A stretch of DNA of 32,000 nucleotides, from NCBI GenBank assembly GCA_008932965.1, contig WBXG01000003.1, positions 1-32,000 of the forward strand. The letters are read 5' to 3'. Source of the stretch: Verrucomicrobiota bacterium. GTDB taxonomy: Bacteria; Verrucomicrobiota; Verrucomicrobiia; Chthoniobacterales; UBA6821. Numbering within the stretch: the first letter of the stretch is position 1; the number at the start of each line of letters is the position of its first letter. The notes under the pieces were generated by a model that saw nothing but the letters and a program-made list of their open reading frames with translations, had not been told where the DNA came from and ran no database searches. The position numbers and the translations under genes were made by a program. Below are positions 1,078 to 29,657 of the stretch, in pieces.

Positions 1078-1093
1078 CCCGGATATTTCATCC
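1078..1093 (+). repeat. Solo copy (S1) of the dispersed end motif: CCCGGATATTTCATCC
   Basis: Matches the terminal motif of the 7601-7786 and 25694-25950 elements (CCCGSATATTTCATAC). Lies in the 76-nt spacer between the thrC stop and the lysC start. Confidence 0.6.
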
Positions 1094-1100
1094 TAAAAAA

Positions 1101-2201
1101 TTAGGAGCCTTGGATCACATTTAAGACTGCTTCTTCTGTCGCCTCAGCCTGGAGTGGCTCAGAAAGAGTATGAGATGCTGTTTCTGGATCTTTTAATCCA
1201 TGACCGGTAATAGTAAGAACAATTGTTGGATGAAGCGGAAGCTTACTAAAAATAGTTTTAGAGCGACAAAGATGATGATCCTCAGATTGAAAGATTTTTA
1301 GTAAAAGAGCCACAGGAACAACACTTGCCGGTTCTGCAAAGACCCCTTCTTTACTTGCAAGCCATTTCTGTGCTGCCAAAATTTCTTCATCAGTCACCAT
1401 ATCAAATTCACCCAAGGATTCCTTCACAGCCCCCACAGCCCCATTCCAACTTGCGGGCTGACCGATACGAATAGCTGTTGCAAGGGTCTCTGGATGATCC
1501 ATCGGTGCTCCATGATAGAGAGGGGCCGCTCCCGAAGCCTGAACTCCAAGCATGATAGGGAGATTATAACTACGACCTACATCATAAAATTCACGATATC
1601 CTTTCCAGTATGCAGTAATATTTCCAGCATTCCCGACTGGTAAAATATGAAGATCTGGAGCCTTTCCTAACTCTTCGATGATTTCAAAGGCAGCAGTCTT
1701 CTGGCCTTCAAGGCGGTAAGGATTTGTAGAATTGACTACTACAAAATCCCCTCTCTCACCTAATTTTTGAACAATGCGAAGAGCATCATCAAAATTTCCT
1801 TTAATAGCCACTACCGTAGCACCGTAGAGGTATGCCTGTACCATTTTACCTCCAGCAATCCGTCCTGCAGGAAGAATGACCACACACTGCATCCCTGCAC
1901 GAGCTGCATAGGCAGCTGCAGAGGCTGAAGTATTCCCAGTAGAAGCACAAAGGACTGCCTTGGCACTATGCTCTGCAGCTTTGGAAATGGCAACCGTCAT
2001 CCCACGATCTTTGAAAGAACAGGTAGGATTGAGACCTTCATACTTAAGATAGATATTCCCTTGAACCATCTCACTCAATGTTGGGGCATGGATTAAAGGT
2101 GTCGATCCCTCGCTCAACGAGATAATAGGGGTTGCCTCACTTACTGGGAGATACTCTCTGTAGCGGTTAATAACACCAAAATCTCCTCTTATTTTTTGCA
2201 T
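1101..2201 (-). CDS. thrC: Threonine synthase
   Basis: 366-aa ORF with the PLP-lysine motif CSFKDRGMT and an overall threonine synthase-like sequence. Sits 5 nt downstream of hom. Confidence 0.93.
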
Positions 2202-2206
2202 GCTAT

Positions 2207-3526
2207 TTAAAAAATTTCGACGTTTAAAAGAACTGGCTTTGCTTTAACACAGGCAAGAAGTGTTATTTTTTGAAGGGCAGCCTGCATCATACCATAACGG
2301 GCCTTGTGAATCATAAAGACAAGAGGAGTCTCTCCCTCACCTTGAGATTCAGGTTGCACCAGCGAAGAGATACTAATTCCTTCCTCTCCAAAAATCGTTG
2401 CAATCGTGGCAAGCACCCCAGGGCGATCTTCAACTGCAAGTCGCAGGTAATAGGAAGAGATGATTTCAAGAGCAGGACGACTTTTTCCATAAAGGGAATG
2501 AGGAGTAAAACCGACTAAGTGGCTTGAGACCTCGTTGGTTGGGGTAGTATGAAGTCTATGAGCTGCTGCTACCACAAGATCCCCAATGACAGAGCTTGCT
2601 GTAGGCTCACATCCAGCCCCACGTCCATAAAAAAGAGCCTCCCCGACTAGATCCCCTTTTACCGCAATAGCATTGAAGGAGCCACTCACAGAAGCCAAAA
2701 TACTTTTTTTCGGAATGAGCGTAGGACTGACTCCTACTTCGATGAAGCCATCAGCAGTATCACGAATGCTAGCTAAAAGCTTAATAGAGTAACCAAATTT
2801 TTTTGCAAAAGTGATGTCAGCTGCAGTGATTGCTTCGATCCCCTCGACTCGAACCTCCTCTGGTCGTACCCAGAAGCCATAAGCCAAGGCAGCTAGAATA
2901 ATAGCTTTGTGTCCCGCATCCCATCCACTTAGATCGAGTGTTGGATCTGCTTCTGCATAGCCACGAGCGGTCGCCTCAGAAAGGGCCTCATCATAATCCA
3001 GCCCCTCCTCTTCCATGCGAGAGAGAATATAATTGGTCGTTCCATTAAGAATTCCATGAATCGATTCAATCCGATTTCCCACAAAAGCGTCGCGTAAGTT
3101 TTGAATAATAGGAATGCCTCCAGCCACCGCAGCTTCATAAAAAATAGGAACACCCTTTTTTTTCGCAAGCGCAAAAATCTCCTCCCCTCGCTCTGCCAAG
3201 AGTGCTTTATTACCGGTAACAACAGTGCGACCCGATTCCAGCGCTCCTTTAATGAGCTCAAAAGCATCGGTGGTTCCCCCCATGAGTTCTACAATGACTT
3301 GAATCTTCGGATCACGTAAGAGATCTCTCCATGAATCGACTAGAAGGCATTTAGGAAGAATCGCATCACGTTTTTTCTTGAGGTCACGCACAGCAATAGC
3401 ACCGATCTCAAAAGAGGCCCCTGTGCGCTCTAAAAGAAGTTCCCGTTGCTTCTCTAAATATTTAAAAACCCCACCACCAACCGTACCAAATCCTGCAAGA
3501 CCGATACTGATGGGGTGAGTTGTCAT
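2207..3526 (-). CDS. hom: Homoserine dehydrogenase with C-terminal ACT-like regulatory domain
   Basis: 439-aa ORF. N-terminal Rossmann [12 protein letters not shown], and a C-terminal [31 protein letters not shown]-type segment. In hom-thrC-lysC gene order. Confidence 0.92.
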
Positions 3527-3538
3527 AGAAACACTTTT

Positions 3539-5308
3539 TTAAATTGCAGTCCCTATTATACCTTGGAGAAAAGGAGCAGCCCCTGCACACAGTGTGCAGA
3601 TATACCCTATAAGTCCTCCAGCATAGGCTTCAAAGCCTACTGCCATCCTTGAAGAATGCTCAGGATCTGCATTATATGCGTATAGTGCATAGCCTAAAGA
3701 ACCGGAAATAATGGCTGTAGCAAGCGTTGGAGATACTTCATATAACTGTGTCAACATTGTGCCGAATTGGGTACATAGTGCTCCCATTCCTGTTTGAGCG
3801 GCGTCAACAATCACACCTTCGGCAGCGCCTTCAGCTACTGGAGCTGCTTGGAAACACCCGAAAAGATTTTGAAAAGCATTCCTAAGACAATCAGGGATCA
3901 ACCAATTCCCTATCCACTGGATAGCGGAGATAATTCCATTTATAAAAAGCCCTAAAAAATGTTTTAAACCAAGCAAGAAAAAATGGATACTCCCTCCAGT
4001 TCCAGCACCTATTCCATAATCAATTGTTCTGTAAAGAACATCAGGATGATGTGGGAGAGCAGAAAAACCCTCCTTAGGATTATACACATCATGGAAATCT
4101 TGTGATATCACTTCTTTTGATTTTTCGTACATACCGGAAAGAGATGTATCTTTAGGCTCAATCAACACCACCCGAAAGCCAACATCATTGGAGGCATATT
4201 GAAGCAGTGAAAGACCTTGAGAACCATGTTCGTGGGGATCATTACTCTTCTGATCAATGAACACATAATTTTCAGAACTAATTTCCATTGGGCTAGTTGA
4301 TTTCCATGAACCTCCTCGAATAATAGTTGTTTCCATGGTAACAAGAGAATTAGTAGACGTTCTAACAAGAGATCTAGAATCAGTCCATTGAGCCACATTC
4401 CCCCCCATATCACAGGTTCCAAAAGGTCCTGGGGAGTGTTTAAAAATACCAACCGGAGTTATCTTTGGTTGGAATTTTTCAGTTTGAGTATAATTATCAT
4501 TTAGGTGGTAATTGACATTTTGAAATGCCCCTTCAGTATCAATTGGCTTGTTATATTCCTCTTCAGTGCTATTAAATGGTTGGTCTCCTTTGGATGTGGA
4601 ATAAAGCCAATATTGTCCCTCATTGGCTTTATCATAATAGGCAGCCTTGTACCATTCATCTTCGCTAGGCAAGCGCCAGAATCCTCCTGGCCATTTTGAT
4701 TGATCGTAGGTTACTTGATCTTGTGAAAAATTAGCATGACAGAGATCATCATTAATTTTGTAGGGACCATCTTCAGTAGTGTTTTTATCTTCTTCACCCG
4801 TCTGGGGCTGTCCATTGGAGAGCCAGTTACAAAAGCGCACTGCTGCAAAAAAATCGACATACGTGATAGGTAACTGACCTCGATCGAGTGAATCAAGATC
4901 GTTTTTTGCTTCTTCATCACCATTTTTCTTGCTGATTACTTTATAAGAAATGGTTCCTCCTGGACTCGTGATTTTTTTAATACAATTCGCAAAAGAATCT
5001 GTCTGCATTTTTGTATTAAAGAGATGAAAAGGATCAGCAGGAAATCCTTTTGTTGCTACCGCATTGAGGAAAGCACACCACTCTCTGGCAGTAACATCAA
5101 ATTTTCCAATTTTAAAATCATGATTGACGGTACCGCGACCATTAGTATCAAATTTATTTCCAGCATCATCAACGGTCATCGTCTCGATCGTTAAAGTAGG
5201 ATTGGAATCCTTCGTGCTGTTTTCCTCGGCTTTCAAACAAAAGCTAGATAACCCAAAAAGGGTGCAAAAAAGAACTGTATATAGGGGATTTCTGGGGGGA
5301 TTCATCAT
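3539..5308 (-). CDS. FGE/SUMF1 (formylglycine-generating enzyme family) domain protein with signal peptide and Gly/Ala-rich hydrophobic C-terminal region
   Basis: 589-aa ORF. N-terminal hydrophobic signal-like segment (LYTVLFCTLFGLSSFCLKA). FGE-sulfatase-type motifs CDMGGNVAQWTD and IRGGSWKS. The last ~158 aa (nt 3542-4015) are Gly/Ala-rich hydrophobic stretches (GIGAGTGGSIHFFLLGL..., AVGFEAYAGGLIGYICTLCAGAAPFLQGIIGTAI). Confidence 0.75.
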   Translation of the reverse strand: MMNPPRNPLYTVLFCTLFGLSSFCLKAEENSTKDSNPTLTIETMTVDDAGNKFDTNGRGTVNHDFKIGKFDVTAREWCAFLNAVATKGFPADPFHLFNTKMQTDSFANCIKKITSPGGTISYKVISKKNGDEEAKNDLDSLDRGQLPITYVDFFAAVRFCNWLSNGQPQTGEEDKNTTEDGPYKINDDLCHANFSQDQVTYDQSKWPGGFWRLPSEDEWYKAAYYDKANEGQYWLYSTSKGDQPFNSTEEEYNKPIDTEGAFQNVNYHLNDNYTQTEKFQPKITPVGIFKHSPGPFGTCDMGGNVAQWTDSRSLVRTSTNSLVTMETTIIRGGSWKSTSPMEISSENYVFIDQKSNDPHEHGSQGLSLLQYASNDVGFRVVLIEPKDTSLSGMYEKSKEVISQDFHDVYNPKEGFSALPHHPDVLYRTIDYGIGAGTGGSIHFFLLGLKHFLGLFINGIISAIQWIGNWLIPDCLRNAFQNLFGCFQAAPVAEGAAEGVIVDAAQTGMGALCTQFGTMLTQLYEVSPTLATAIISGSLGYALYAYNADPEHSSRMAVGFEAYAGGLIGYICTLCAGAAPFLQGIIGTAI

Positions 5309-5350
5309 AGTATTTTTGGAAAAAGGGAAGTGAATATAATTCGATCCTCT

Positions 5351-5378
5351 AAAACTTCAAGGGATAATTTTGAAGTTT
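5351..5378 (-). terminator. Candidate weak stem-loop downstream of nuoF
   Basis: AAACTTCAA (5352-5360) pairs with TTGAAGTTT (5370-5378), a 9-bp AT-rich stem with a 9-nt loop, 45 nt past the nuoF stop. On the minus strand the hairpin is followed by TTTTAG. Confidence 0.3.
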
Positions 5379-5422
5379 AGCGAAGGAATCAAGCTCCTCC
5401 CCATTGATAGGGCATCACAAAT

Positions 5423-6769
5423 TTATTGATGAGCTATTTGCGCTCCAAATTCCTCGGGGAACTTATCAATGAAGCTTTGGGTCGGCCATGAAGCAGCCTC
5501 ACCAAAAGCGCAAACGGTTCGTCCTGCGATATGATCAGCAATATTGTGCAGCGAGATAGAATCTGATTCTTGAGTGCCTTCGGCAATCATACGGGTAGAA
5601 AGCTTCGACATCCAGAGCACTCCCTCACGACATGGAGTACATTGCCCACAGCTTTCGTGAGCGTAGAATTGATTGAGATTGTTAAGAGCCCACAGCATGT
5701 TACGAGAATCATCCATCACAATGACCCCTGCACTTCCAATCATGGAGCCAGCGGCAGCAAGATTTGCCGCGTCCATTACCATATCAAGGAGAGGCACCTC
5801 TTTATCAATCACAGTTCCATCATCAGCCTTGGATTTGATTTTAAAAATTTCATTTGCACGTAAGACTTTGGAGGAGCTCCCACCAGGAATAATTGCCTTC
5901 AGACTTCTTCCAGGGCGAAGGCCACCACAGATATCAAAAATTAATTCACCCAAGGTTACCGATCCAACAGCTAACTCATAAGGACCTGGTTTCATCACAT
6001 CACCACTGACACAGAGAACGCGGGTTCCCCCATCACCAGCAGTTCCCATGGCGGCATACTCAGCAGAACCAAGACGAAGTATATGCTTTACATGGCAGAT
6101 TGTCTCCACGTTGTTGACAATGGTTGGAGCCATGTAGAGACCAAGCACTGCAGGAAAATAAGGTGGCTTAATTCGAGGATAAGGACGCTTTCCCTCAAGT
6201 GATTCTAGAAGGCTTGTCTCCTCTCCGCAAATGTAGGCCCCTGCCCCTTCATGAAAGTAGATATCAAGATCAAATCCCATTCCAAAAATATTCTTTCCTA
6301 AAAAACCCCGGTCACGGGCCTCTTGAATCGCTTTTTCCATGATCTCTTTGGCATGGGTATATTCACAACGTACATAGATGTAGGCCAGATGAATATTGAG
6401 TGCATAGCACGTGATGATCATTCCCTCAAGTAACTGGTGAGGATCACGGTGGAGAATATAACGATCTTTGAATGTCCCAGGTTCCGACTCATCTCCATTC
6501 ACACAGAGATAGTGGGGCTTTCCATCATCACGACGAATAAATCCCCACTTTACTCCTGTTGGAAAAGCAGCCCCTCCGCGTCCTCGCAAATTAGAAGCCT
6601 TGACTTCATTGACGATTGCCTCAGGGGTCATAGTAAAAGCTTTTTTAGCTTCCTCATATCCCCCATGCGCTAGGTAGTTCTCAATATCAGGAGTATAGTC
6701 TGACTTTCCAGCATTTTCAAAAATGATACGACGCTCTTTAGGGTGAGGATGTTCAATAAGAGAAGACAT
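5423..6769 (-). CDS. nuoF: NADH:quinone oxidoreductase subunit F-like flavoprotein (FMN/NADH-binding, 4Fe-4S)
   Basis: 448-aa ORF with GRGGAAFPTGVKW (FMN/NADH site) and ESCGQCTPCREG (N3 4Fe-4S cluster motif). Confidence 0.92.
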   Translation of the reverse strand: MSSLIEHPHPKERRIIFENAGKSDYTPDIENYLAHGGYEEAKKAFTMTPEAIVNEVKASNLRGRGGAAFPTGVKWGFIRRDDGKPHYLCVNGDESEPGTFKDRYILHRDPHQLLEGMIITCYALNIHLAYIYVRCEYTHAKEIMEKAIQEARDRGFLGKNIFGMGFDLDIYFHEGAGAYICGEETSLLESLEGKRPYPRIKPPYFPAVLGLYMAPTIVNNVETICHVKHILRLGSAEYAAMGTAGDGGTRVLCVSGDVMKPGPYELAVGSVTLGELIFDICGGLRPGRSLKAIIPGGSSSKVLRANEIFKIKSKADDGTVIDKEVPLLDMVMDAANLAAAGSMIGSAGVIVMDDSRNMLWALNNLNQFYAHESCGQCTPCREGVLWMSKLSTRMIAEGTQESDSISLHNIADHIAGRTVCAFGEAASWPTQSFIDKFPEEFGAQIAHQ

Positions 6770-6774
6770 AAAGT

Positions 6775-7362
6775 TTAGGAATTTTTTTTGATAATATCTT
6801 CTACATCTTGAAGAGAGACTCTTTCCACAAGGTCTTTGTTAACGAGACAGACAGGGGCAGATCCACAGCTTGCAAGACATTCCACAAATTCCACACTAAA
6901 CTTTGCATCAGGGCTTGTTGGAATTCCGTGATGTCCTTCACAAGTGGGATCGATTCCCGTACTCTTACAAAATTTTTCATGTATTTCATAGCTACCAGCC
7001 AATGCACAGGAAAGGGTACGACAGACACGAATGATTGTTTTTCCTGGGGCCTTTTGGCGGAACCATGGATAGAAAGTGATGAGCTCTAAAATCGAAATTG
7101 AATTAAGATCCAATTTTGCAGCAATCCACTCAACTCCACTCTCATCAATAAAACCGAAATGATTTTGCCACAAGTGGAGCAAGGGAAGTGCAGCACTTCG
7201 TTTAGAAACGGGATAGTGGGTGATGGCTTCTTCCACCTTATCGAGCAACCCTGAGGTAATCCTCTCTGCTTGTGACAGTGTAGAACCAAGAACATCATCG
7301 TGAGACAATAGCTCACCATGGGAAGAGGTTTGTTCGATAGTGTTATGAGCTCGTTGGTCCAT
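6775..7362 (-). CDS. nuoE: NADH:quinone oxidoreductase subunit E-like 2Fe-2S thioredoxin-like protein
   Basis: 195-aa ORF with the Cys pattern CRTLSCALAG ... CLASCGSAPVC typical of NuoE/HoxF-N. Stop lies 5 nt before the nuoF start. Confidence 0.9.
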   Translation of the reverse strand: MDQRAHNTIEQTSSHGELLSHDDVLGSTLSQAERITSGLLDKVEEAITHYPVSKRSAALPLLHLWQNHFGFIDESGVEWIAAKLDLNSISILELITFYPWFRQKAPGKTIIRVCRTLSCALAGSYEIHEKFCKSTGIDPTCEGHHGIPTSPDAKFSVEFVECLASCGSAPVCLVNKDLVERVSLQDVEDIIKKNS

Positions 7363-7494
7363 TAGAAAATTTTCAGAATTTTAATCAGGTAAGTTTTCCA
7401 AGTGTACAAAATGAATTTGGAATGACGAGAAGATCTTTCTTGTTTTTTATCAATATTTAAAAACAAGCTCTCTATGACTCGAATTTCAAAATCA

Positions 7495-7569
7495 TGGCTC
7501 CAGCGGTAGGATTCGAACCTACGACCAATCGGTTAACAGCCGACCGCTCTACCACTGAGCTACGCTGGA
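7495..7569 (-). tRNA. tRNA-Asn (anticodon GTT), CCA encoded
   Basis: The minus strand reads TCCAGCG TA GCTC AGTGGTA GAGC G GTCGG CTGTTAA CCGAT TGGTC GTAGG TTCGAAT CCTAC CGCTGGA G CCA. This gives a 7-bp acceptor stem, D arm, anticodon loop CTGTTAA (GTT), T arm with TTCGAAT, 75 nt in total. Confidence 0.93.
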
Positions 7570-7600
7570 TCTAGTGCTTAAACTTTTTTCACAACACAAA

Positions 7601-7786
7601 GGGTTAACCCGCCTATTTCATACCGATTCTGCTGCGGCTTGCGAACACCTGATGGATACTGCGTCAGCTTCGAATTGCTCCTCGGGCGGTATGAAACATA
7701 CAGCCGTCGTCGCAATCCATCACTTCCTTGTCTGCATCAGGATTCGCGGCGCCTCGCGACGAATCAGTATGAAATATGCGGGTTAA
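7601..7786 (+). repeat. Full-length copy A of an inverted-repeat-bounded, GC-rich, non-coding dispersed element (MITE-like or structured RNA)
   Basis: Left end is TTAACCCGCCTATTTCATACCGA. The reverse complement of the right end is TTAACCCGCATATTTCATACTGA (21/23 identical). The element matches the reverse complement of 25697-25950 with 6 mismatches over 178 aligned nt plus one indel. It is visibly more GC-rich than its flanks. Confidence 0.85.
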
Positions 7787-7848
7787 TGATTATTCATAAA
7801 TCAACTGAGAAAGCAACAGTCTTTAGAAAATAGTGACAAGGTCCGAAG

Positions 7849-7870
7849 TTAACCCGGATATTTCACACTA
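7849..7870 (+). repeat. Solo copy (S2) of the end motif: TTAACCCGGATATTTCACACTA
   Basis: Matches the TIR consensus. Lies 62 nt right of copy A, in the spacer downstream of the carA stop. Confidence 0.65.
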
Positions 7871-7899
7871 AATCTATTACGACTTATGAAAAGCTCCTT

Positions 7900-9051
7900 T
7901 TAGCCTGCCCGACTCGCAATCATCTTTCTAAATTCTTCAAACAAATAAAGGGAATCATGAGGGCCTGGAGAGGCCTCTGGATGGAACTGAACGGCTAGGA
8001 GTGGTTTTTCTCGATGAGCAAGTCCTGCCACCGTACGATCATTGAGATGCCGGTGGGTTACCTCTAATGATAAAGGAAGGCACTCTTCATCGATTGCATA
8101 GCCATGATTTTGAGAGGTAATCATGACCTTTCCCGTACGTAAATCTTGCACTGGTTGATTAGCCCCGCGATGTCCAAATTTTAATTTGAAGGTGCTCGCC
8201 CCGAAAGCATGACCAAGAATTTGCAATCCTAAACAGATTCCAAAAACTGGTTTATGATCAGCGAGCAGACGCGCATTTTGGTGAATAGAAGAGAGTTTGG
8301 CTGGATCTCCGGGACCATTGGAAAAGAAGATCCCATCAGGATTCATTGCCAATACATCCTGTGCGGAGGTGAGTGCTGGGACTACCATCACGCGCATTCC
8401 ATGAGAGCGCAGCAAGCGCAAAATATTTTTTTTAACCCCAAAGTCATAGGCCACAATAATAGGTTCCTGTTCTTTTTTTGAAAAAGAGGTGTTCACTTCT
8501 CCCCAAGGAGCTTTTTCATTGCCTGCGGGATCCCACTCATAAATTTCTTTAGTAGAAACTTCTTTGACAAGATCGCTTTCTTCAAGGAAAGGAGTCGCTT
8601 TCGCAAGCGCCACAGCCTCCTGGTCGCTCATCAGTTCTGTTGTTAAACAGGCTCTCATGACCCCGCTGATTCGAAGATGTTTTGTTAATGAGCGAGTATC
8701 AACACCACTAATAGCAACCACATGATGGCGCTGAAGATATTCTTGAAGTCTTAACTCAGAGCGCCAGTTGCTTGAAATATCGCTTGTCTCTTCGATAATA
8801 AATCCACGTAGATGAATTTCTCCACTTTCACAATCATCTTGATTTGTTCCATAATTACCTACTAGGGGATAGGTCATAGCCACCATTTGGCCACGGTAGG
8901 AGGGATCAGTAAGGACCTCTTGGTACCCACTCATTGAAGTATTAAAGCAAATTTCCCCTTGGCATGTTCCCATCGCCCCAAAAGAAAACCCTCTAAATAA
9001 ACGTCCATCTTCGAGTGCGAGGAGAGCAGGAGGGTGAATAAGCGACGGCAT
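7900..9051 (-). CDS. carA: Carbamoyl-phosphate synthase small (glutamine amidotransferase) subunit
   Basis: 383-aa ORF with the GATase triad context [17 protein letters not shown] and [12 protein letters not shown]. No carB is adjacent. Confidence 0.93.
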
Positions 9052-9220
9052 GATCTGTTAAGAAACCATGTTCTACCCTCCTAGGAAATAAAAAAAATGA
9101 ATAAAGAGTAAAAAAAAGAGATCTTTTTTTCAGAGATGCTAAAGTGAGGTTCATTCAACTCCATATCCAAGAGAAATCTATTCCCACCATTGATTCCCAA
9201 AAGCCTCTTAGAATAAAACA

Positions 9221-9985
9221 TTGATCATGAAACATGATTTTAATGAAAGATGTGATTCATCATCTCAAACGTACCAATATTATCATTGTTGCAGTTTTCT
9301 AGCTCGACTTTTGTTTCGAGTTTTTTGTCGAGTGCATCTCGTGATCCTTGAAACCCCTCCCAAAGAGGGTCCTTCTATCATCGCTTCCAATCATATCAGT
9401 CATTTTGAGCCAGCACTATTAGGTGGTTTTTTTCCTCGAGCACTCGATTGGGTTGCCATGGAAGAATTATTTCAACATCCACTAGGCAGATGGTTATTGA
9501 AACATCTTCATGTTATTAGCATGGATCGCTTCGGAAAAAATTTCGCACACAATCGTCACTCGCTTCGCTCTATTTTGCAGAGGCTGCGTCTTGGACGGGC
9601 TGTTGGTATTTTTCCAGAAGGTGGAATTCGTTCCGGAGAGGAATCGATTTTAGAAAAGGCCCCTATGAAACCTGGACTCACAATGCTAAGTTTCTTTTCT
9701 CAAGCCCCTGTTATTCCCTGTGTTGTTTTGGGAACGGATCGACTTTATCTTTTTAAAAATTGGCTCCGTCGTCCTCCTATTTGGATTATCATTGGAAAAG
9801 CCATGAGACCTCCCCCCAAAGAGGAGAGAAACAACGCACAAGCACGCCTCAATTTTGAAGAAAAATTAAATTCTGTTTTTCCAGCGTTACAAAAAGAGCT
9901 GTACGAACGTTTTCAATTAACTCCTGAGGACCTTCCAAAAACAGCAGCAGAAAGAAGAGGAACCAGTATAAAATATCCGGGTTAA
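9221..9985 (+). CDS. plsC: 1-acyl-sn-glycerol-3-phosphate acyltransferase-like (LPLAT/PlsC family)
   Basis: 254-aa ORF with SNHISHFEP (an HX4D-type motif, here with Glu in place of Asp) and GIFPEGGIRSG. The track start 9221 is TTG; the ATG at 9227 is an alternative start. The last codons and the stop lie inside repeat S3. Confidence 0.75.
   Translation: MIMKHDFNERCDSSSQTYQYYHCCSFLARLLFRVFCRVHLVILETPPKEGPSIIASNHISHFEPALLGGFFPRALDWVAMEELFQHPLGRWLLKHLHVISMDRFGKNFAHNRHSLRSILQRLRLGRAVGIFPEGGIRSGEESILEKAPMKPGLTMLSFFSQAPVIPCVVLGTDRLYLFKNWLRRPPIWIIIGKAMRPPPKEERNNAQARLNFEEKLNSVFPALQKELYERFQLTPEDLPKTAAERRGTSIKYPG
9965..9985 (-). repeat. Solo copy (S3) of the end motif overlapping the 3' end of the plsC-like gene
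   Basis: The plus strand reads AGTATAAAATATCCGGGTTAA. Its reverse complement is TTAACCCGGATATTTTATACT. The TTAA supplies the TAA stop codon. Confidence 0.65.
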
Positions 9986-9992
9986 GGAAAAA

Positions 9993-10967
9993 ATGACTGT
10001 TCCAAAACAATCACACTTGAGAGGTCTTCAGTACCACATCATGGATTCCATCATGTATGGAATGATGAACTATGTACAATGGCAGCTACGCCATGAAGTC
10101 TCTTCTCATGAGGCTCTAGAGACCTATTTAAAAGAGTGTGCCTCCTGGGACCGTGCTTCTTATTTTTCAGCTCCTCCTATGAAAACATATGAGATGGACA
10201 ATAATATTCTCTCTTGGGAAAGCCCTATCTCCTCTTCTTTCGTAGAGAACAATTGTGTTCGGGTGCTTTTTTTTCCTGCCTCTAAAAAAAAGAGTGATCA
10301 CCATCCCACCCTTATCATTCTACATGCACTCATGTCAGCAAGTGATCATGGCTATCGGCGTATTGCAGCTCAGATGAATCAACGTGGTTGGAATGTTCTT
10401 TTTCCGCATCTCCCATTTCACTATTCACGAAGACCACGAGGCCATACGAATGGAGCTCTAACAATTACCACCGATTTGATCCGTAACGCTGAAACAGTGC
10501 GTCAAGCTATTCAAGAAATACGACAGTTAATGCTCTGGTTGCGTATGCAAGGTTCAGAACGGATAGGAATTCTAGCAACGAGCTATGGCGGTTGGCTTGC
10601 CTCACTCTTACTCTCGTTAGAACATGTCGACTTTGCCATTCTCTTGCAGCCTATCATTGATTTGAATGTAGCACTCTTTCACAGCCCCCTTGCACGTATG
10701 ATGGGATCTTCTTTAAGAGCGCACGGAGTGACTCCTGCACATCTTGACCGTCATGCACATCTTACAGGGCCAGCACACGAACAACCACTGACTCCATCAG
10801 AACGAATTGTCGTTATTGGCGGTACCTACGATTGCATTGCACCTCCTAAGCAGCTCCAACATTTTTCCTCAAATTGGAATGTTCACTATGAAGAGGTCGC
10901 ACAAGGACATTTTGGATATAAAGCGATGAAAAAAGCCATTCTCATCCTGCAAGAAATGTCCCACTAG
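9993..10967 (+). CDS. Alpha/beta-fold serine hydrolase, substrate unknown
   Basis: 324-aa ORF with nucleophile elbow ATSYGGW and downstream Asp (GGTYDCIAP) and His (AQGHFGY) candidates for a Ser-Asp-His triad. Starts 7 nt after the plsC-like stop. Confidence 0.7.
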   Translation: MTVPKQSHLRGLQYHIMDSIMYGMMNYVQWQLRHEVSSHEALETYLKECASWDRASYFSAPPMKTYEMDNNILSWESPISSSFVENNCVRVLFFPASKKKSDHHPTLIILHALMSASDHGYRRIAAQMNQRGWNVLFPHLPFHYSRRPRGHTNGALTITTDLIRNAETVRQAIQEIRQLMLWLRMQGSERIGILATSYGGWLASLLLSLEHVDFAILLQPIIDLNVALFHSPLARMMGSSLRAHGVTPAHLDRHAHLTGPAHEQPLTPSERIVVIGGTYDCIAPPKQLQHFSSNWNVHYEEVAQGHFGYKAMKKAILILQEMSH

Positions 10968-11027: not shown

Positions 11028-12884
11028 ATGACTGACGAACTTACTCAATGCATCGCTGCTGGAAAAATTAGCCCTCCTGACGCCGAAAAACTCCAATCTC
11101 TTTCTCCAGGATCTTACTGCAAACATCGCAGCTGGGGATTTGGACGTGTCAACGCATGGCATCTTTTAACAGATCAAGTCATCATCGATTTTGTCGGGAA
11201 AAAAAATCACCCGATGCAATTACATTATGCAGCAGAAACATTGATTCCTATTCCTGATAACCATATCTTGGCACGACTAGAAAATGACCCTACTGCGATT
11301 CAAGAAGAGGCCAAGAAAGACCCTGTAGGACTCGTTCGAATGATCTTAGCAGATCATGGCGGAGCTGCCACCATGGATGAAATTTCAGAAATCCTAGTGC
11401 CTGTTATTTTTGATGCTGCTGGATTCAAAAAATGGTTTGATACCACGAAGAAAAAACTAAAAGCAGATGGTCACTTTGAAATACCAACAAAGAAAAATAT
11501 TCCGATCAAATTACAGGAGGTCAAGGTTGAGCAGCATCATCGGACCCTAGAACAATTCCACACAGCTCGCCATCCTAAGGAACAAGTTACAGCTATTGAT
11601 GCTCTCATTAAAACACTGGATGCTTCCACACTGAGTCTGGAAGAACTTCAAATAGTCATTCGTCATCTAGATGATGCTGCACGCCGAGCAGAACGCTTGC
11701 ATATTTCCAAGGGACTTGAACTTTTATTAGCACGCAATGAAATTGCCAGCTTTCACAAAGAATTAGAGCCTGCCTCCATTCAACCCTCAATCACTGAGTT
11801 TTTAGCCAATACTGTAAAAAAACTGCACGATATCTTTTCAGAACTTCCTGCTTCAAAATACCGACGTATTCTTAAAAATTTCCCAACAGTGTTTCCTCAG
11901 AAATGGCAGGATCAGGCAACACAACTCTTGCGCCATGCAGAACCGCGACTTGTAAGTGAGATATTACTTCTTTTTAAAGAAAATAATAGTGAGGCTGCCT
12001 TTGCCTCCATCCTGGGACGGATGATCCAAGATCGCTCCGCTAGCTCGGATCTTCTCTCTTGGATCTGCGAGGAGAGGAAAAAAACCTTCCCTGAATTTAT
12101 CAATAGTGAGCTTCTCTCAGCTATTATCTCCTCCCTAGAACGGGATATGCATCTGGAGGGAAAAAAAGGGAATCGCTTACAAGAGCTTCTTTTTACTGAT
12201 CGAGAACTCATTGCAGATCTTCTATCATCAGCACATGATGACATAGCACGAAACATCATTAGAAAAATTATGATGAGTCCTGTCTTTAATGATCTTGACC
12301 GTCGCTCCCTTTTAGCACGTATTTTAAAAACTCACCCTGAGCTTCAATCGCTGGTAACAGGGCATCAAGAAAAAGAACATTCCGCTGCTCGTGATGAAAA
12401 TCTTATTGTTTCTTGGAAAAGCTTAGAACGACGCAAGAACGAGTATGAAAATCTCGTTAACAAATTAATTCCACAAAACACAAAAGATATTTCTATTGCT
12501 CGTTCCTACGGAGATTTGCGTGAAAATTTTGAATTTAAATCTGCCAAAGAACAACAAACAGTCCTACTTCGTCAAAAAGGGGAGCTAGAACTACTACTAA
12601 ATCGAGCTCGTGGAACGAATTTCGAAAATCCTGATACTTCTGTTGTTTCCATTGGAACCGTTATTTCCCTACAAGATAAAGTTACCGGAGAAAAAGAGAG
12701 CTACTCTATCTTAGGAGCTTGGGATGGAGCACCAGAAAAACGCTGGGTCTCCTATCAAGCAGTCATTGGACAAGCTTTGCTGGGTCATGCTCAAGGCGAT
12801 GTAGTCACCCTCCCTGCAGAAAAAGGAGACCGGTCGATGATCATTGAAAAAATTGAACCTTTTACTGAGAGCATCGAGAGTTAG
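11028..12884 (+). CDS. Long GreA-family transcript-cleavage factor homologue: ~455-aa N-terminal extension plus a complete GreA-like module
   Basis: The C-terminal ~160 aa contain the coiled-coil tip SYGDLRENFEFKSAKEQQ (acidic D/E pair conserved) and a GreA C-domain-like stretch VSIGTVISLQD...VSYQAVIGQALLGHAQGDVV. I did not recognise the N-terminal 450 aa. Confidence 0.7.
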   Translation: MTDELTQCIAAGKISPPDAEKLQSLSPGSYCKHRSWGFGRVNAWHLLTDQVIIDFVGKKNHPMQLHYAAETLIPIPDNHILARLENDPTAIQEEAKKDPVGLVRMILADHGGAATMDEISEILVPVIFDAAGFKKWFDTTKKKLKADGHFEIPTKKNIPIKLQEVKVEQHHRTLEQFHTARHPKEQVTAIDALIKTLDASTLSLEELQIVIRHLDDAARRAERLHISKGLELLLARNEIASFHKELEPASIQPSITEFLANTVKKLHDIFSELPASKYRRILKNFPTVFPQKWQDQATQLLRHAEPRLVSEILLLFKENNSEAAFASILGRMIQDRSASSDLLSWICEERKKTFPEFINSELLSAIISSLERDMHLEGKKGNRLQELLFTDRELIADLLSSAHDDIARNIIRKIMMSPVFNDLDRRSLLARILKTHPELQSLVTGHQEKEHSAARDENLIVSWKSLERRKNEYENLVNKLIPQNTKDISIARSYGDLRENFEFKSAKEQQTVLLRQKGELELLLNRARGTNFENPDTSVVSIGTVISLQDKVTGEKESYSILGAWDGAPEKRWVSYQAVIGQALLGHAQGDVVTLPAEKGDRSMIIEKIEPFTESIES

Positions 12885-14841: not shown

Positions 14842-14846
14842 TCTAG

Positions 14847-14864
14847 TCCGCATATTTCATACTA
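14847..14864 (+). repeat. Solo copy (S4) of the end motif: TCCGCATATTTCATACTA
   Basis: Matches the TIR core. Begins 6 nt after the ftsB stop. Confidence 0.65.
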
Positions 14865-14944: not shown

Positions 14945-15526
14945 ATGTTGAGGAATGCTTTTAATTCTATAGAACCATTTGCGTTCAAAGAATGGGCTCT
15001 CGTTTGTGAAGCGCTTGGTTCTGGAGATCAAAGTCTTTTACTACGCAAGGGAGGAATCGCTGAGGGAAAAGAGGGATTTGGTTTTAAGCACTCCGAATTT
15101 TTTCTCTTTCCGACATGGTTTCATGGACAAATTGAAAAGATACGTCCCCTGCGTGCCTCTGCAATTTTAGAGGAAGCTCCCGAAGTTTTCAATTTGGAGT
15201 ATATGGCTTCAATAGAGTGGAATGATTTTATCACCGATCGCAAGAAGCTAACTCGTCTCGCCTCTTTTCATATTCTTGAGGAGTCGGTCATTGAAGAGCG
15301 CTTTGGTTATACCGAAAAACATCAGAAAAATATTCCTGGGATTCATGTGGCTTTTGTTCGTGTCTATCGCCTTGATATTCCATTTCAAATCACCATGGAG
15401 AAACGTTTTGGGGGATGTCGCTCTTGGATTCAACTTCCTAAAATGATCGTTGGCACCTCCGTTTCTGTTTTAAGTGACGAGGAACATAGCGAGCGCCGCA
15501 ATTTTTTGGCACAGGCACTAGCCTAA
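14945..15526 (+). CDS. Conserved hypothetical protein (resembles DUF1802 family from memory)
   Basis: 193-aa ORF. The N-terminus FKEWALVCEALGSGDQSLLLRKGGIAE...FFLFPTWFH resembles what I recall of DUF1802 proteins. No catalytic motif recognised. Flanked on both sides by repeat motifs S4 and S5. Confidence 0.6.
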   Translation: MLRNAFNSIEPFAFKEWALVCEALGSGDQSLLLRKGGIAEGKEGFGFKHSEFFLFPTWFHGQIEKIRPLRASAILEEAPEVFNLEYMASIEWNDFITDRKKLTRLASFHILEESVIEERFGYTEKHQKNIPGIHVAFVRVYRLDIPFQITMEKRFGGCRSWIQLPKMIVGTSVSVLSDEEHSERRNFLAQALA

Positions 15527-15597
15527 ATATTTCATACCGAACACCTGCCTTGCCCGGATATTTCATACTGATCGTTATAAGGAGTATGAAACATTCG
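15525..15597 (+). repeat. Composite degenerate copy (S5): truncated left end plus a mini hairpin version of the element
   Basis: AAATATTTCATACCGA-ACACCTG equals the copy A left end with the 18 nt TTCTGCTGCGGCTTGCGA deleted. It is followed by CCCGGATATTTCATACTGA-TCGTTATAAGG-AGTATGAAACAT, in which TTTCATACT and AGTATGAAA form a 9-bp inverted repeat. Confidence 0.7.
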
Positions 15598-15661
15598 AGT
15601 TCGAAAAATTTTTTATCACGAAGCTGGATTTTCTGCAGACATCTTTTATGTTCTTAGGTAC

Positions 15662-23798: not shown

Positions 23799-23816
23799 GA
23801 TAAAAAAATTCTTTTT

Positions 23817-25627: not shown

Positions 25628-25693
25628 AGGTTCAGTATTTTATCGCAGAAGTGATATTGACTCAAATGCAAACTCCTAGAAGAAGCAAATAAG

Positions 25694-25950
25694 GGGTTAA
25701 CCCGCATATTTCATACTGGTTCGTCGTGAGGCGCCGCGAATCCAGATGCAGACACCACCGGCGGTCGGGAGACTGCGGTGGAGACTGCCCTGAAAGGGCG
25801 AGACGAGCGGGAGCAAGCGAGTCAACGAAGGTGATGGATTGCGACGACGGCTGTATGTCTCATACTGCCCGAGGAGCAATTCGAAGCTGACGCAGTATCC
25901 ATCAGGTTTTCGCAAGCCGCAGCAGAATCGGTATGAAATAGGCGGGTTAA
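25694..25950 (-). repeat. Full-length copy B of the dispersed element, inverted relative to copy A, with 76 nt of GC-rich sequence where copy A has 5 nt
   Basis: Positions 25697-25754 match the reverse complement of copy A with 3 mismatches in 58 nt. Positions 25831-25950 match with 3 mismatches in 120 nt. Positions 25755-25830 (76 nt) replace 5 nt of copy A. The same TIRs are at both ends. Confidence 0.85.
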
Positions 25951-25982
25951 CTCTTTTTGATCGTTTGATGAGAACGCTTCTA

Positions 25983-27344
25983 TTAGGGATCTGGAACAAC
26001 CTTTCTTGCTTTTTCAGATGCACGTATGACATCACGGTAGTAAAAAGCAGAAGATTTTAATTTTCTTTGGAAAGTTTTTTCATCCATTGTTGCCAATCCG
26101 AATTTGGGAACATATCCGTAGTGCCACTCATAGTTATCCGCTAGTGACCAAATGAAGTACCCTTTGACATCGTATCCTTCTTCACGTGTTTTTTGAAGCT
26201 GTGCAATGTGGTCATGAAGATATTCAATCCTCTTTTGCTCATTTAAAGTGGCTATTCCATTTTCTGTAATCATCATCGGTTTATCATAGCGCTTTCCAAT
26301 TTGACGAATCAGTTTCCCAAGAGCTGGTGGATCAATATGCCATCCCATCATGGTAAAATGAGTTCCACGATGACTTCCTTGAGTTAACATGCTCAGAGGA
26401 CCGGCTATCTGACTGTAATAATAATTAAATCCAATGATATCACAGACGTCGTAGATTTTATCAAGATGATCAAACGCATTGTGCTCAACCGTGTTGTATA
26501 TCATCCCACCAGGATCAAGTGGACCATGATACCAGTAAGGAATAGCCTCTATGCTTACAATTTTCGCATCTGGTTGGATTTCTTTAATACGAGCAGCAGC
26601 ATCACGGAAAAAGTCAGCACTAACAGCAATGGCTTGTTTATAACCTTGAAAATCTAAAGTGTGATTGGGGGGCCATAAGCCCACGATGTAAGCAGTTAAA
26701 ATTTGACCATTGGGTTCATTTTGAGGCGCGTAATAAGTGGCATAGGGAGCCATCTCCTGGACCATTCTAGAAACATAGCGATTCCAATGTGAGCGTGCTA
26801 AAGGATTCAACCAATTTGTATTTGCACCATTTTTTTTGTCCACCAACCAAGAAGGAAACGTAAAATGCCAGAGACAGACGTAGGGCTCAATCCCAGCTTC
26901 CTTGAGCTTCCGTACCATCGCAACATAGCGATGAATTGCTTCCTCGTTGTACTCCCCCGGACGAGGTTCAACACGGGCCCATTCAATACTAAAACGATAG
27001 GAATTAACCCCAATTTTTTTGAGTGCTTTAAGATCCTTATCAAAATGAGACCAGCTGTAGAGTGCGTTACCAACAGGAGGAGCTTTCTTATCTTGAACCA
27101 AAATATCCCAATCACGCTCAAAATATTCTTTTGTTCCCGATTTTTTAGAACGATCCTCATACTGCAAACTACTCGTTGAGATCCCCCAGGCAAAAGGGTG
27201 ATAGCCACTATTTTTTGCAGCTTGATGCCTTGGTGCTTTATCAAGAGGTCCTAAAGGGTGCAATGCACAACCGGTAAGAAAAAATAAAATCACTAATACT
27301 GAAAAAAAATAACATCGCATCGGTTTGGTTTTTAGAAATGTCAT
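25983..27344 (-). CDS. Glycoside hydrolase family 1 (beta-glucosidase-like) lipoprotein, paralogue 1
   Basis: FAWGISTSSLQYED, YRFSIEWARVEP, acid/base PQNEPNG, nucleophile MITENGIAT and WSLADNYEW. Lipobox-like FLTGC. The track start 27380 overlaps the upstream gene, so I prefer ATG 27344 (MTFLKTKPMRCYFF...) or 27320 (MRCYFF...). Confidence 0.85.
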   Translation of the reverse strand: MTFLKTKPMRCYFFSVLVILFFLTGCALHPLGPLDKAPRHQAAKNSGYHPFAWGISTSSLQYEDRSKKSGTKEYFERDWDILVQDKKAPPVGNALYSWSHFDKDLKALKKIGVNSYRFSIEWARVEPRPGEYNEEAIHRYVAMVRKLKEAGIEPYVCLWHFTFPSWLVDKKNGANTNWLNPLARSHWNRYVSRMVQEMAPYATYYAPQNEPNGQILTAYIVGLWPPNHTLDFQGYKQAIAVSADFFRDAAARIKEIQPDAKIVSIEAIPYWYHGPLDPGGMIYNTVEHNAFDHLDKIYDVCDIIGFNYYYSQIAGPLSMLTQGSHRGTHFTMMGWHIDPPALGKLIRQIGKRYDKPMMITENGIATLNEQKRIEYLHDHIAQLQKTREEGYDVKGYFIWSLADNYEWHYGYVPKFGLATMDEKTFQRKLKSSAFYYRDVIRASEKARKVVPDP

Positions 27345-27351
27345 CTCTGTT

Positions 27352-28245
27352 TTAGTTGGAAGAGGAGATGTAGGGAACAACCTTTAATTGATTCGCTCCA
27401 TCACGGTAAAAACCGTAAAATCCTGGAAGCTTACCAAACCAATCCATCATAGATGTCTGAAGGAAATCATGATGCTGTAGCTCCCTGTTTTTTTTCAATA
27501 CTCCATTTTTATTTCGAATTTGATCAAAAGGTAATGTGAGTTTTTGATATTCGGCATCATTCAAACGAGCCTTGGCAAGCCGCTCTGGATCATAAATGGA
27601 AATCCACCATGCCCCGAATGAGTCAGATTCGGTAGGCGGCTTAATTTTAAAAATAAATTTTCCTGCACGTTTCTCTTCCCCCTTGAGGTTAAGACTATAA
27701 AAGGTAGCAAGTGCTGAACGTGAAGAAATATAACCTGCCAAAAATTCTCGTGCGAGTTCTTGAAACTTTTCTAGCCGCTCTCCCCGTGCATAGCTACCAA
27801 GCTCAACGCAGGCAGGATCCTTAGGATTTCCATAAACATTCATCTCTCCATGATTGTTCACTTGAAAGGAGAGATAAGGGACATTTTTTAAATACCCTTC
27901 ATCGATCCTGGTAGCCGGTATCTGAAAAAAAGATTTTACCATATCATTACACCTTAGGTCTTGAACCATCATTCGCCAAGGAGGAGCCTTATCTGGGTCC
28001 ACAAGATCAGCAAAGTAGACCATGCTTTTATCAGCATCATTGATACGTTGCACGGAGGCTTTATTAATAATTCGTTCTCCTAAGGACTGCTGGAGGATAA
28101 TTTCTTTGGCATTACTTTTAATGATTAATCCTTCATAGCGTGTCCCATCTTTCATAATCACTAAATCAGGTAAAAGGCGGTCTAATCCATAAGAAATTCC
28201 AAAACAGGTATTCAAAAAGAGTAGTAATAAAATTATTTGCTTCAT
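27352..28245 (-). CDS. Secreted hypothetical protein, no recognisable domain
   Basis: 297-aa ORF with signal peptide MKQIILLLLFLNTCFGISYG. Its stop lies 7 nt before the preferred start of GH1 paralogue 1, which implies co-transcription. Confidence 0.6.
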   Translation of the reverse strand: MKQIILLLLFLNTCFGISYGLDRLLPDLVIMKDGTRYEGLIIKSNAKEIILQQSLGERIINKASVQRINDADKSMVYFADLVDPDKAPPWRMMVQDLRCNDMVKSFFQIPATRIDEGYLKNVPYLSFQVNNHGEMNVYGNPKDPACVELGSYARGERLEKFQELAREFLAGYISSRSALATFYSLNLKGEEKRAGKFIFKIKPPTESDSFGAWWISIYDPERLAKARLNDAEYQKLTLPFDQIRNKNGVLKKNRELQHHDFLQTSMMDWFGKLPGFYGFYRDGANQLKVVPYISSSN

Positions 28246-28313
28246 ATGTGATGACTTCCTTAGTTACTAGTAGTTGACTTTCATATCAAGCATCCATCTT
28301 CACTACGAGACCA

Positions 28314-29633
28314 ATGTTAAGAATTCTCTTTTGCTTCCTCACTCTTGTTTTTTTTAGTAGCTGTGTTACTGCACCAGGCCATTATCACACACCTGCTAAC
28401 AAAGTTGTCCTGAAGCCACTTCCCAAGGAACCATTCTGGTGGGGCATCTCTACTGCTTCTTTTCAAAATGAAGATCGCGGCTATCCACGTAACTCATCAT
28501 GGTATTTTAAAACTGATTGGGATCGTTATGCCGAGGAGGGCTTAGTACCGCCGCGCGGAGATGATGCAGTTTTTTCTTGGAGTGAGTTTGATCGAGATAT
28601 AGCGGCAGCAAAAAAACTCGGAGTGAATCATTTTCGTTTCGGTATTGAATGGGCTCGTATTGAACCCCATCCAGGAGTGATTAATCATGAGGCCTTGAAC
28701 CAGTACGTCTCCATGGCACGCCGTCTCAAGGCCAATGGTATTGAACCCATTGTCACTCTCTGGCACTTTACTTTTCCAGATTGGCTTTATGATGGAAAAA
28801 AGAAAAACCAATCTAACTTTTCGCATCCTGATGTTCAAAAAGCATGGCATGCTCACATGGAAAGAACCGTCCATGCCCTTGCTCCCTACGTACAGATTTA
28901 CGTTCCACAAAATGAACCCAATGGGGCCTTGCAACTTGGATGGATTGCTGGACATTGGCCACCAGGACTTCTGCTTCATCCTATGGGTTATAAAAAAGCG
29001 ATGAATACTGCAGCCTCTATGTTTCGAGATGCCGCTGCAATCGTGAGAAAAGAACGTCCTGATGCCATCATTATGGGAATTTATTCACTCCCTGAATGCA
29101 GGCGTTCCTTCACTCATGACCCTACTGCCCTTATTTACAATATTTATCAACGACAAAACTACGACCACCTCGACAAGGTTGTTGATACCTGTGACATCAT
29201 TGGTGTGAACTATTATTACTCCAAAAGCTCCAGTATTCGTGAACTCTTAGTACGTCCTATGGGAGAACGAAGTTCCGAGTACACCCAGATGGGCTGGGAA
29301 ATTGTCCCTGAAGGACTTTATCGGACCCTCTGTTGTATTCGTGATCGCTATCACAAGCCTATTGTTGTTTCAGAAAATGGAATTGCCACTCAAAGCGCCC
29401 AGAAATCCATCTCTTTTTTTCGCAATCACATCGCTCAAATGCGGCGTGCTATCAATGACGGAGTCGATGTTCGAGGCTATTTTCCTTGGACACTCGTTGA
29501 TAACTACGAATGGACCGAAGGATGGCATGGACAGTTTGGGCTCTTTTCCTACGATAAAAAGACCCATGAGCGCCATATCACTCCACCAGGCATTTGGCTC
29601 AGTCGCTTTATTAAGGCATATCCCGAGCCATAA
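28314..29633 (+). CDS. Glycoside hydrolase family 1 (beta-glucosidase-like) lipoprotein, paralogue 2
   Basis: FWWGISTASFQNED, FRFGIEWARIEP, PQNEPNG, VVSENGIAT and WTLVDNYEW. Signal plus lipobox-like FFSSC. Collinear similarity to paralogue 1 throughout. Confidence 0.85.
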   Translation: MLRILFCFLTLVFFSSCVTAPGHYHTPANKVVLKPLPKEPFWWGISTASFQNEDRGYPRNSSWYFKTDWDRYAEEGLVPPRGDDAVFSWSEFDRDIAAAKKLGVNHFRFGIEWARIEPHPGVINHEALNQYVSMARRLKANGIEPIVTLWHFTFPDWLYDGKKKNQSNFSHPDVQKAWHAHMERTVHALAPYVQIYVPQNEPNGALQLGWIAGHWPPGLLLHPMGYKKAMNTAASMFRDAAAIVRKERPDAIIMGIYSLPECRRSFTHDPTALIYNIYQRQNYDHLDKVVDTCDIIGVNYYYSKSSSIRELLVRPMGERSSEYTQMGWEIVPEGLYRTLCCIRDRYHKPIVVSENGIATQSAQKSISFFRNHIAQMRRAINDGVDVRGYFPWTLVDNYEWTEGWHGQFGLFSYDKKTHERHITPPGIWLSRFIKAYPEP

Positions 29634-29641
29634 TTATCAGA

Positions 29642-29657
29642 GCATATTTCATACTGA
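29642..29657 (+). repeat. Solo copy (S6) of the end motif: GCATATTTCATACTGA
   Basis: Identical over 16 nt to the left end of copy B (25703-25718) and to the reverse complement of the right end of copy A. Begins 9 nt after the stop of GH1 paralogue 2. Confidence 0.7.

Follow-up and report, generated by a model that had tools for sequence, protein, structure and literature searches.

A short motif, CCCGSATATTTCATAC, recurs at eight loci (A, B and S1 to S6) in the 32,000-nucleotide stretch of Verrucomicrobiota DNA considered here (contig WBXG01000003.1, positions 1 to 32,000; hereafter the window, meaning this whole stretch), which belongs to a low-GC population of Chthoniobacterales. The copies are very probably two miniature inverted-repeat transposable elements (MITEs), A and B, and six MITE fragments, all derived from insertion sequences (ISs) of a clade of the IS1380 family with which they share their terminal inverted repeats (TIRs). 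As part of the same reading, and with the same confidence, the motif would correspond to the outer 16 nt of the TIR of this clade, a repeat of about 24 nt when its less conserved inner part is included. The window elements are regarded as MITEs because they are transposase-less derivatives sharing the TIR of the IS1380 clade. No paper was found that describes such a link between a MITE superfamily and the IS1380 family in Verrucomicrobia or Planctomycetes. This interpretation explains a conspicuous repeat of uncultured freshwater Chthoniobacterales, and provides annotators with a simple rule by which YTAR (Y, C or T; R, A or G) followed by CCCGSATATTTCATAC denotes an IS1380-type end.

Copies of the motif in the window

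The window was searched with both versions of the motif core, and the expectation for the CCCGSWTATTTYAYAC pattern was derived from dinucleotide-preserving shuffles. Nine matches to CCCGSWTATTTYAYAC were found at up to two mismatches against 0.14 expected, a number reached by none of 100 shuffles, and the sharper core CCCGSATATTTCATAC gave 12 matches at up to three mismatches (0.39 expected). The initial annotation of this sequence had listed solo copies in six intergenic spacers and about 11 occurrences in 32 kb. All six copies were recovered by the pattern search at the coordinates given there. The matches group into the eight loci of Table 1. Although only 6.7% of the window is non-coding (gene map plus tRNA-Asn and 6S RNA), all copies are confined to spacers or to the final codons of an open reading frame (ORF), as had been proposed. 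The proximity to stop codons noted there also holds, with six of the eight loci found within 8 nt of a stop; for A and B, the nearest stop is 113 and 32 nt away, respectively. Of the 15 spacers that exceed 40 nt, seven hold a copy, S3 being one further copy. Among the genes named near the copies, the identities of thrC, lysC, carA, pyrG and GH1 were confirmed, ftsB was recovered through a weak FtsB/DivIC match, and the gene between ftsB and pyrG encodes a DUF1802 (PF08819) product.

Table 1. Position and structure of the MITE copies and solo copies in the window. Motif matches on the reverse strand are marked (-).
Feature	Position	Strand	Match start	Description
MITE copy A	7604..7786		7608, 7767(-)	183 bp = TTAA + 175-bp core + TTAA; recognized by sequence and inverted repeat
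MITE copy B	25697..25950		25701, 25931(-)	254 bp = TTAA + 246-bp core + TTAA; recognized by sequence and inverted repeat
S1	1074..1097	+	1078	Solo TIR, TTAG + CCCGGATATTTCATCC; between thrC stop (1101-1103) and lysC start (1024)
S2	7849..7899	+	7853	Left end of a different subfamily, TTAA + CCCGGATATTTCACAC + TAAATCTATTACG...; ~50 nt; adjoins carA stop (7900-7902)
S3	9957..9985	-	9966(-)	25-nt TIR + TTAA flank; 29 nt 90% complementary to end of B
S4	14843..14862	+	14847	Putative recombinant solo TIR, CTAG + TCCGCATATTTCATAC; CTAG starts 1 nt past ftsB stop
S5a	15518..15548	+	15522	Old remnant, CTAG + CCTAAATATTTCATAC + CGAACACCTG...; contains DUF1802 stop codon (15524-15526)
S5b	15549..15603		15553, 15584(-)	47-bp mini-element (CCCGGATATTTCATAC...GTATGAAACATTCGAG); TIR + 15-nt loop + decayed inverted TIR
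S6	29639..29692	+	29639	Decayed A/B-type left end, ~51 nt; 51 nt 73-75% identical to B and A ends

A and B are one element in opposite orientations: stretches of 129 and 58 nt are 96% and 95% complementary between them, and B exceeds A by about 70 internal bp. Both are flanked by TTAA on either side, a target duplication of 2 or 4 bp, and neither has transposase coding capacity; their lengths of 183 and 254 bp stand beside a modal size of 176 bp for the family. Their TIRs extend over 26 nt in A (92% complementary) and 32 nt in B (84%), and both copies are imperfect palindromes along their whole length, with predicted folds as RNA of -73.2 kcal/mol (A, z -6.0) and -116 kcal/mol (B, z -6.2). Copy B is identical in contig L239, and contig L240 breaks inside it. 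Copy A is located 35 nt upstream of the tRNA-Asn gene (7495-7569, minus strand), but is probably not the source of its promoter, since these 35 nt align with the MITE-free spacer of a relative (L124).

The six solo copies appear to be truncated, internally deleted or recombined MITEs, as a more complete counterpart of each is present in the window or at the corresponding site of a relative. Of the earlier suggestion that they are footprints or decayed remnants of MITE insertions, the second part is thus retained, whereas their sequences point to deletion, recombination and decay rather than to excision footprints. The term "solo" itself is only partly apt: S2 extends over about 50 nt and S6 over about 51 nt, S5 combines a remnant with a 47-bp mini-element, and S3 forms the 3' end of an ORF from within. 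The inner side of S1 points to the thrC stop, from which its 16-mer core is separated by 7 nt. The interior of S2 (CACACTAAATCTATTACG...) recurs in contigs L025 (5443, 6230) and L041 (2714). S3 supplies the C-terminal residues TSIKYPG of the plsC-like ORF as well as its stop codon, which is contained in the TTAA flank, and ends 7 nt before the ATG of the next gene. S5a resembles an A-type left end carrying an internal deletion. S6 is found between the stop of the second GH1 gene, GH1-2 (29631-29633; 5 nt away), and the 3' end of a 6S RNA gene (29724). This 6S (SsrS) RNA gene (29724-29904, minus strand; Rfam RF00013, 55.4 bits) is full length and convergent with GH1-2.

Insertion sequences sharing the terminal repeat

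A metagenome scan with YTARCCCGSATATTTCATAC, by which loci were retrieved through exact match to the motif, gave 107 further loci. Over all loci, the 87 inverted TIR pairs showed a sharp mode at 176 bp. Mini forms and half-size forms accompanied this mode, and a second class spanned 1.57-2.25 kb. The 176-bp class consists of mosaic subfamilies assembled from a few half-types, and element interiors vary from lineage to lineage. In the second class, the same 16-mer with its YTAR flanks, in inverted orientation, bounds elements of 1.57-2.25 kb in metagenome contigs. One of them, of 1.76 kb (L166), reads CTAG, CCCGGATATTTCATACCCGGATTG ... CAATTCGGGTATGAAATATCCGGG, CTAA and contains an ORF of 504 aa; another, of 2.25 kb (L138), has the same architecture with an ORF of 492 aa. 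The L166 and L138 products scored 343.7 and 355.8 bits, respectively, with the IS1380 transposase model NF033539 (cutoff 180), and both match PF13701 (E 1e-133). A small extra ORF of about 70 aa (L138, 3013-3230) was observed next to the transposase gene of the 2.25-kb copy. Using tblastn, motif-adjacent IS1380 transposase genes were identified in 17 loci (L166, L138 and 15 more), all outside the lineage of the window. These transposases are mutually 38-73% identical, yet the ends of the elements are nearly the same.

Other inverted pairs were rejected as ISs. In L080, where 1087 bp separate inverted TIRs, two elements of about 75 bp surround a flavin-reductase-like gene; the ORF enclosed by the L149 pair (8321-10030; 1.7 kb, low GC) is unrelated to IS1380; and the L132 pair (1467/2652) encloses a trmD-like gene.

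The IS1380 clade bearing this TIR is widespread in Verrucomicrobia and Planctomycetes. In a scan of one genome per species with a 15-mer, most matches were due to chance; among the matches listed, the motif clusters in genomes of the Planctomycetes-Verrucomicrobia-Chlamydiae (PVC) group and, preceded by TTAA, TTAG, CTAG or CTAA, recurs in many genomes. Those listed include a metagenome-assembled genome (MAG) of Spartobacteria and another of Chthoniobacterales, as well as several other Verrucomicrobia, Planctomycetes and Phycisphaerae. With the transposase of L221 as query, 7548 relatives were recovered, most of them on contigs of 1.5-2 kb; none was named as Chthoniobacterales, and the single named one was a Planctomycetaceae MAG. 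BLASTN analyses of plasmid records with the TIR gave chance matches only. In the literature, no paper was found that contains CCCGSATATTTCATAC or describes its YTAR flank preference, that deals with MITEs in Verrucomicrobia or IS1380-derived MITEs in these phyla, or that links the IS1380 family with TTAA.

Several contigs start or end inside the element (L240, 1-30; L012, L030, L051, L093 and L173), which indicates that the repeat regularly breaks short-read assemblies of these lineages.

Orthologous sites in relatives

Relatives were reached via the central GreA-like gene of the window. Sites lacking the element were found for A in L124 and for S5b in L235, as well as for a related copy in a penicillin-binding protein gene in L237 (see below), and S4 was found to vary by an insertion-deletion difference within the population. 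In L124, an 82% relative, A is absent from the tRNA-Asn-carA spacer: homology resumes at the exact TIR boundaries, and 4 nt occupy the place of the TTAA...TTAA of the window. S2 is also absent from L124, as is the C-terminal tail of the plsC-like product (S3), and a 79% relative (L126) carries a full 176-bp element of another subfamily at the S2 spot. At the S3 position, the 91% relative L235 carries the decayed remains of an element (about 170 bp) whose right TIR aligns with S3, and it has a full 176-bp A-type element at the ftsB stop (CCTTAA followed by CCCG), beside the ortholog of the old S4 remnant. S5a is common to the window and L235, where DUF1802 stops at the same codon position, with TGA in L235 versus TAA in the window.

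At S4, two alleles were found. The long allele, present in contigs L115-L119, L122 and L123 (99.0-100% identical to the window), has 101 extra bp and reads CTAG + TCCGCATATTTCATAC...(97-bp element)...CCCGGG + CTAG + CCTGCACATTTCATAC + TAATGTG. The short allele, shared by the window and L120, reads CTAG + TCCGCATATTTCATAC + TAATGTG, the first TIR being joined to the sequence that follows the second. The most economical reading of the two sequences is that the short allele arose by a deletion through recombination between two direct TIR copies, a process analogous to the formation of solo long terminal repeats. The copies can thus seed small deletions.

An in-frame MITE was found in the gene of a class A penicillin-binding protein (L124, 13969-14152; L125, 7624-7807). 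With its 4-bp flank, this 176-bp copy accounts for 180 bp and lengthens the protein by 60 residues, placed between its transglycosylase and transpeptidase domains, and the L237 ortholog lacks exactly these 60 residues. Its presence in contigs of two different samples excludes an assembly artefact. The 40 copies measuring 170-186 bp most often add a net 180 bp; the net length is a multiple of 3 in 24 of them, and 34 have at least one stop-free frame, versus 41% of shuffled controls. Such frames could have been inherited from a small number of master copies and need not have been selected for translatability.

The gene used to reach the relatives (11028-12884, plus strand) encodes a GreA-like protein in which an HTH_GRAD domain is combined with GreA/GreB N- and C-terminal domains. 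Its 618 aa greatly exceed the length of a normal Gre factor, and it is conserved in Chthoniobacterales and other Verrucomicrobia, with 5190 relatives at E <=1e-30. A length polymorphism of about 30 bp was also observed between 99%-identical contigs in a gene with an FGE-sulfatase domain (window 4496-4501 versus L115 3418-3453), whose products measure 589, 606 and 578 aa in different contigs; no motif copy occurs at this polymorphism.

Target site, stop codons and proposed mechanism

The flanks of the elements are YTAR, with a central TA that is invariant over 56 flank pairs. The same 4-mer occurs on both sides in 33 of these pairs (CTAG 15, TTAA 14, CTAA 4). The pairs suggest a 4-bp duplication and are also compatible with a TA duplication combined with a terminal R:Y pair in the TIR; the comparison of 2 and 4 bp is confounded by the palindromic TTAA and CTAG flanks that dominate the set.

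Among 298 TIR copies, 32 have an open frame of at least 100 codons that ends exactly in the TAR of the flank, and lesser spikes of frame ends occur at TGA inside or directly after the TIR. Copies adjoin stop codons because YTAR contains TAA or TAG and so little of the window is non-coding. According to a rough estimate (about 2 YTAR sites per 100 nt of spacer and a usable stop in about one third of genes), the predicted share is of the same order as that observed. Target specificity and selection against coding insertions therefore suffice, and no function at gene ends is required. More generally, target specificity alone can put mobile DNA exactly at stop codons.

We infer that a DDE transposase of the IS1380 family, encoded elsewhere, would bind the shared TIRs and move the MITEs in trans, and that insertion would take place at Y-TA-R tetranucleotides (TTAA, CTAG, CTAA, TTAG), which would be duplicated. 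The steps proposed to follow can be traced in the sequence data. A gene ending in NNY-TAR offers a target at its own stop, and the insertion leaves this stop intact. With about 7% of spacer DNA, the surviving copies accumulate at gene ends. Each insertion recreates YTAR beside a TIR, so that later elements come to lie next to older ones. Deletion between direct TIRs, or between TIR-like internal sequences, together with mutational decay then produces solo ends, some of which now provide stop codons or short C-terminal tails. By such events, MITE copies can reshape the 3' ends of genes.

Alternative explanations

Several observations weigh against a derivation from IS1380-type ISs. No IS1380 transposase was found in the 32-kb window or in about 22 kb of variant contigs, nor in about 50 low-GC Chthoniobacterales loci, all IS-bearing loci having a GC content of at least 0.49. 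Past about 24 nt, the MITE interiors are without clear match to the subterminal sequence of any recovered IS. The conservation of the TIR was in part ascertained by the search itself, as loci were retrieved by exact motif match. Regarding the flanks, 23 of the 56 pairs differ at one position, and a 2-bp (TA) duplication is not separable from a 4-bp one. Finally, the sole polymorphism within the population, at S4, appears to be a deletion and not a new insertion, transposition being deduced here from comparison of sequences.

The initial annotation had also considered a protein-binding or RNA-processing signal at gene ends. Such a selected signal might bind a host protein, act as a terminator or form a hairpin involved in RNA processing or stability, and would have been kept next to stops for its function. 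The closeness of six of the eight loci to stop codons would agree with it, as would the near invariance of the 16-mer across ISs with transposases only 38-73% identical, and the full copies are predicted to form very stable RNA hairpins; comparable MITEs, such as Correia and ERIC, affect mRNA fate. We nevertheless consider this explanation unlikely. Copies point either way with respect to the gene upstream, solo remnants are without a hairpin partner, copies are absent or different in the orthologous spacers of relatives, and the spike at offset 0 from stops is about what target specificity and exclusion from coding sequence predict. A terminator scan of the stretch holding A, S2 and S3 (7300-10100) revealed no candidate with a T-run and none that overlaps a copy; inspection of the sequence likewise showed no T-run downstream of the ends of A and B. 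At gathering score, Rfam matches over the whole window comprise the tRNA and 6S RNA only, with none on the MITE copies, and the 7570-7900 region has no Rfam match at E up to 1. These searches thus provided no evidence for a signal, and the stops are explained by YTAR.

The central TA, invariant within YTAR flanks, could point to MITEs of the IS630/Tc1-mariner type or of IS5 (IS427 group), inserted at the TA of CTAG or TTAA with a 2-bp duplication; many flank pairs (CTAG/CTAA or TTAG/CTAG) would fit such a TA duplication if the TIR ended in a G:C pair. This origin is very unlikely, however, given that the full-length elements found with these ends all encode IS1380-family transposases and none encodes an IS630 or IS5 transposase. 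At one cleanly resolved site the net gain (176+4 = 180 bp) is compatible with both models. The motif also recalls the repetitive extragenic palindromic (REP) sequences and REPINs, mobilized by a REP-associated tyrosine (RAYT, Y1) transposase, in being short, intergenic and present in many copies, frequently arranged as inverted pairs that form hairpins. Such an affiliation is nonetheless extremely improbable: the 16-20-nt unit is not palindromic, CCCGSATATTTCATAC having no internal complementarity, and its heads are YTAR instead of GTAG or CGTC; the elements show empty sites and duplicated YTAR flanks, and in 17 loci DDE (IS1380) transposase genes are enclosed by these ends. Of the earlier idea, a REP-like family with its own enzyme encoded at another locus, the enzyme is thus kept, in the form of a TIR-sharing DDE transposase of the IS1380 family, whereas the RAYT and the REP palindrome are not. 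Integron attC sites were dismissed for lack of a cassette array and of a GTTRRRY core, and IS200/IS605-type palindrome-associated elements (PATEs) because such elements are without TIRs.

The initial annotation had pointed to motif copies on either side of the DUF1802 gene and of the GH1-hypothetical-GH1 cassette. If these loci had been brought in from outside, the copies would mark composite or one-ended transposition units. S4 (plus strand) and the decayed right end of S5b (minus strand) do form an inverted pair around DUF1802, and elements of the IS1380 family are able to mobilise adjacent DNA, as described for TMos (PMC3281130). A pair of elements with the same TIR, each of about 75 bp, was also found in inverted orientation around a 192-aa gene in L080. 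Even so, this scenario is highly improbable. With copies in seven of the 15 sizeable spacers, in addition to S3, such flanking is expected by chance. DUF1802 must have been in place before S5b arrived, as L235 has the order ftsB-DUF1802-pyrG, together with the old remnants, but not S5b. S6 has the same orientation as the left end of B, and the GH1 cassette is therefore not bounded by inverted ends. In the comparison of synteny that had been proposed as a check, no clean indel can be called, as both flanks hold other genes in more distant relatives.

The L080 pair (5827-6921) comes from another Verrucomicrobia MAG. The gene it flanks is flavin-reductase-like, CTAG is found on both outer sides, and the unit may represent a MITE-bounded composite. 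As for the GH1 cassette, an inverted repeat of 27 nt (89% complementary; 26707-26733 / 28898-28924) links its two oppositely oriented GH1 genes. It has no relation to the MITE motif and most likely stems from a coding motif that the paralogs have conserved.

Comparison with known systems

The IS1380 family includes IS1380, IS1247, ISEcp1 and ISPme1. According to ISfinder, its members measure about 1.55-2.0 kb, have inverted repeats (IRs) beginning with CC and generate direct repeats (DRs) of 4-5 bp. IS1247, for instance, is 1672 bp long, with 16/13-bp IRs and a 5-bp DR (PMC3281130). The autonomous elements identified here resemble these ISs by their NF033539/PF13701 transposases, their size (1.57-2.25 kb) and IRs that begin with CC; their flanks (CTAG/CTAG in several ISs, CTAG/CTAA in L166 and L138) suggest a 4-bp duplication but leave its length ambiguous. 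In contrast, the window holds transposase-less derivatives only, and the combination of the TIR CCCGSATATTTCATAC with a YTAR preference appeared in no paper found.

Similar to Correia/NEMIS in Neisseria, ERIC in enterobacteria, RUP in pneumococcus and Nezha in cyanobacteria, the elements described here are non-coding, high-copy sequences of 100-250 bp with TIRs and TA-containing target duplications. They also have in common with these MITEs an intergenic location by genes, the potential for long hairpins, size variants that differ by indels (A, 183 bp, versus B, 254 bp) and mosaic subfamilies. However, their sequences are unrelated, their parent would be an IS1380-type IS instead of IS630 or an undescribed element, and their hosts are Verrucomicrobia and Planctomycetes.

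The eukaryotic transposon piggyBac duplicates a TTAA target next to ends starting with CCC. The junctions reported here, TTAA or CTAG followed by CCCG, are reminiscent of this arrangement and provide a lead based on sequence, although the transposase is of the bacterial IS1380 type and the target is the looser YTAR, not strictly TTAA. IS1380 transposases serve as the prokaryotic outgroup of piggyBac (PMC10813416).

Compared with the Rickettsia palindromic elements (RPEs), the in-frame insertion seen here is a single case, located outside the window, and the open frames may come from a few master copies. As with RPEs, a related copy is nevertheless found in frame inside a gene, that of the penicillin-binding protein, and a stop-free frame is kept in 34 of 40 copies. 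A bolder and rather doubtful proposal would combine these likenesses: a PVC-wide IS1380 clade with piggyBac-like ends (TTAA/CTAG target beside CCC termini), whose MITEs use stop codons as safe sites and, owing to a modal net length of 180 bp (60 codons) and to common stop-free frames, have been repeatedly recruited into genes as stops, C-terminal tails and in-frame linkers, in the manner of RPEs.

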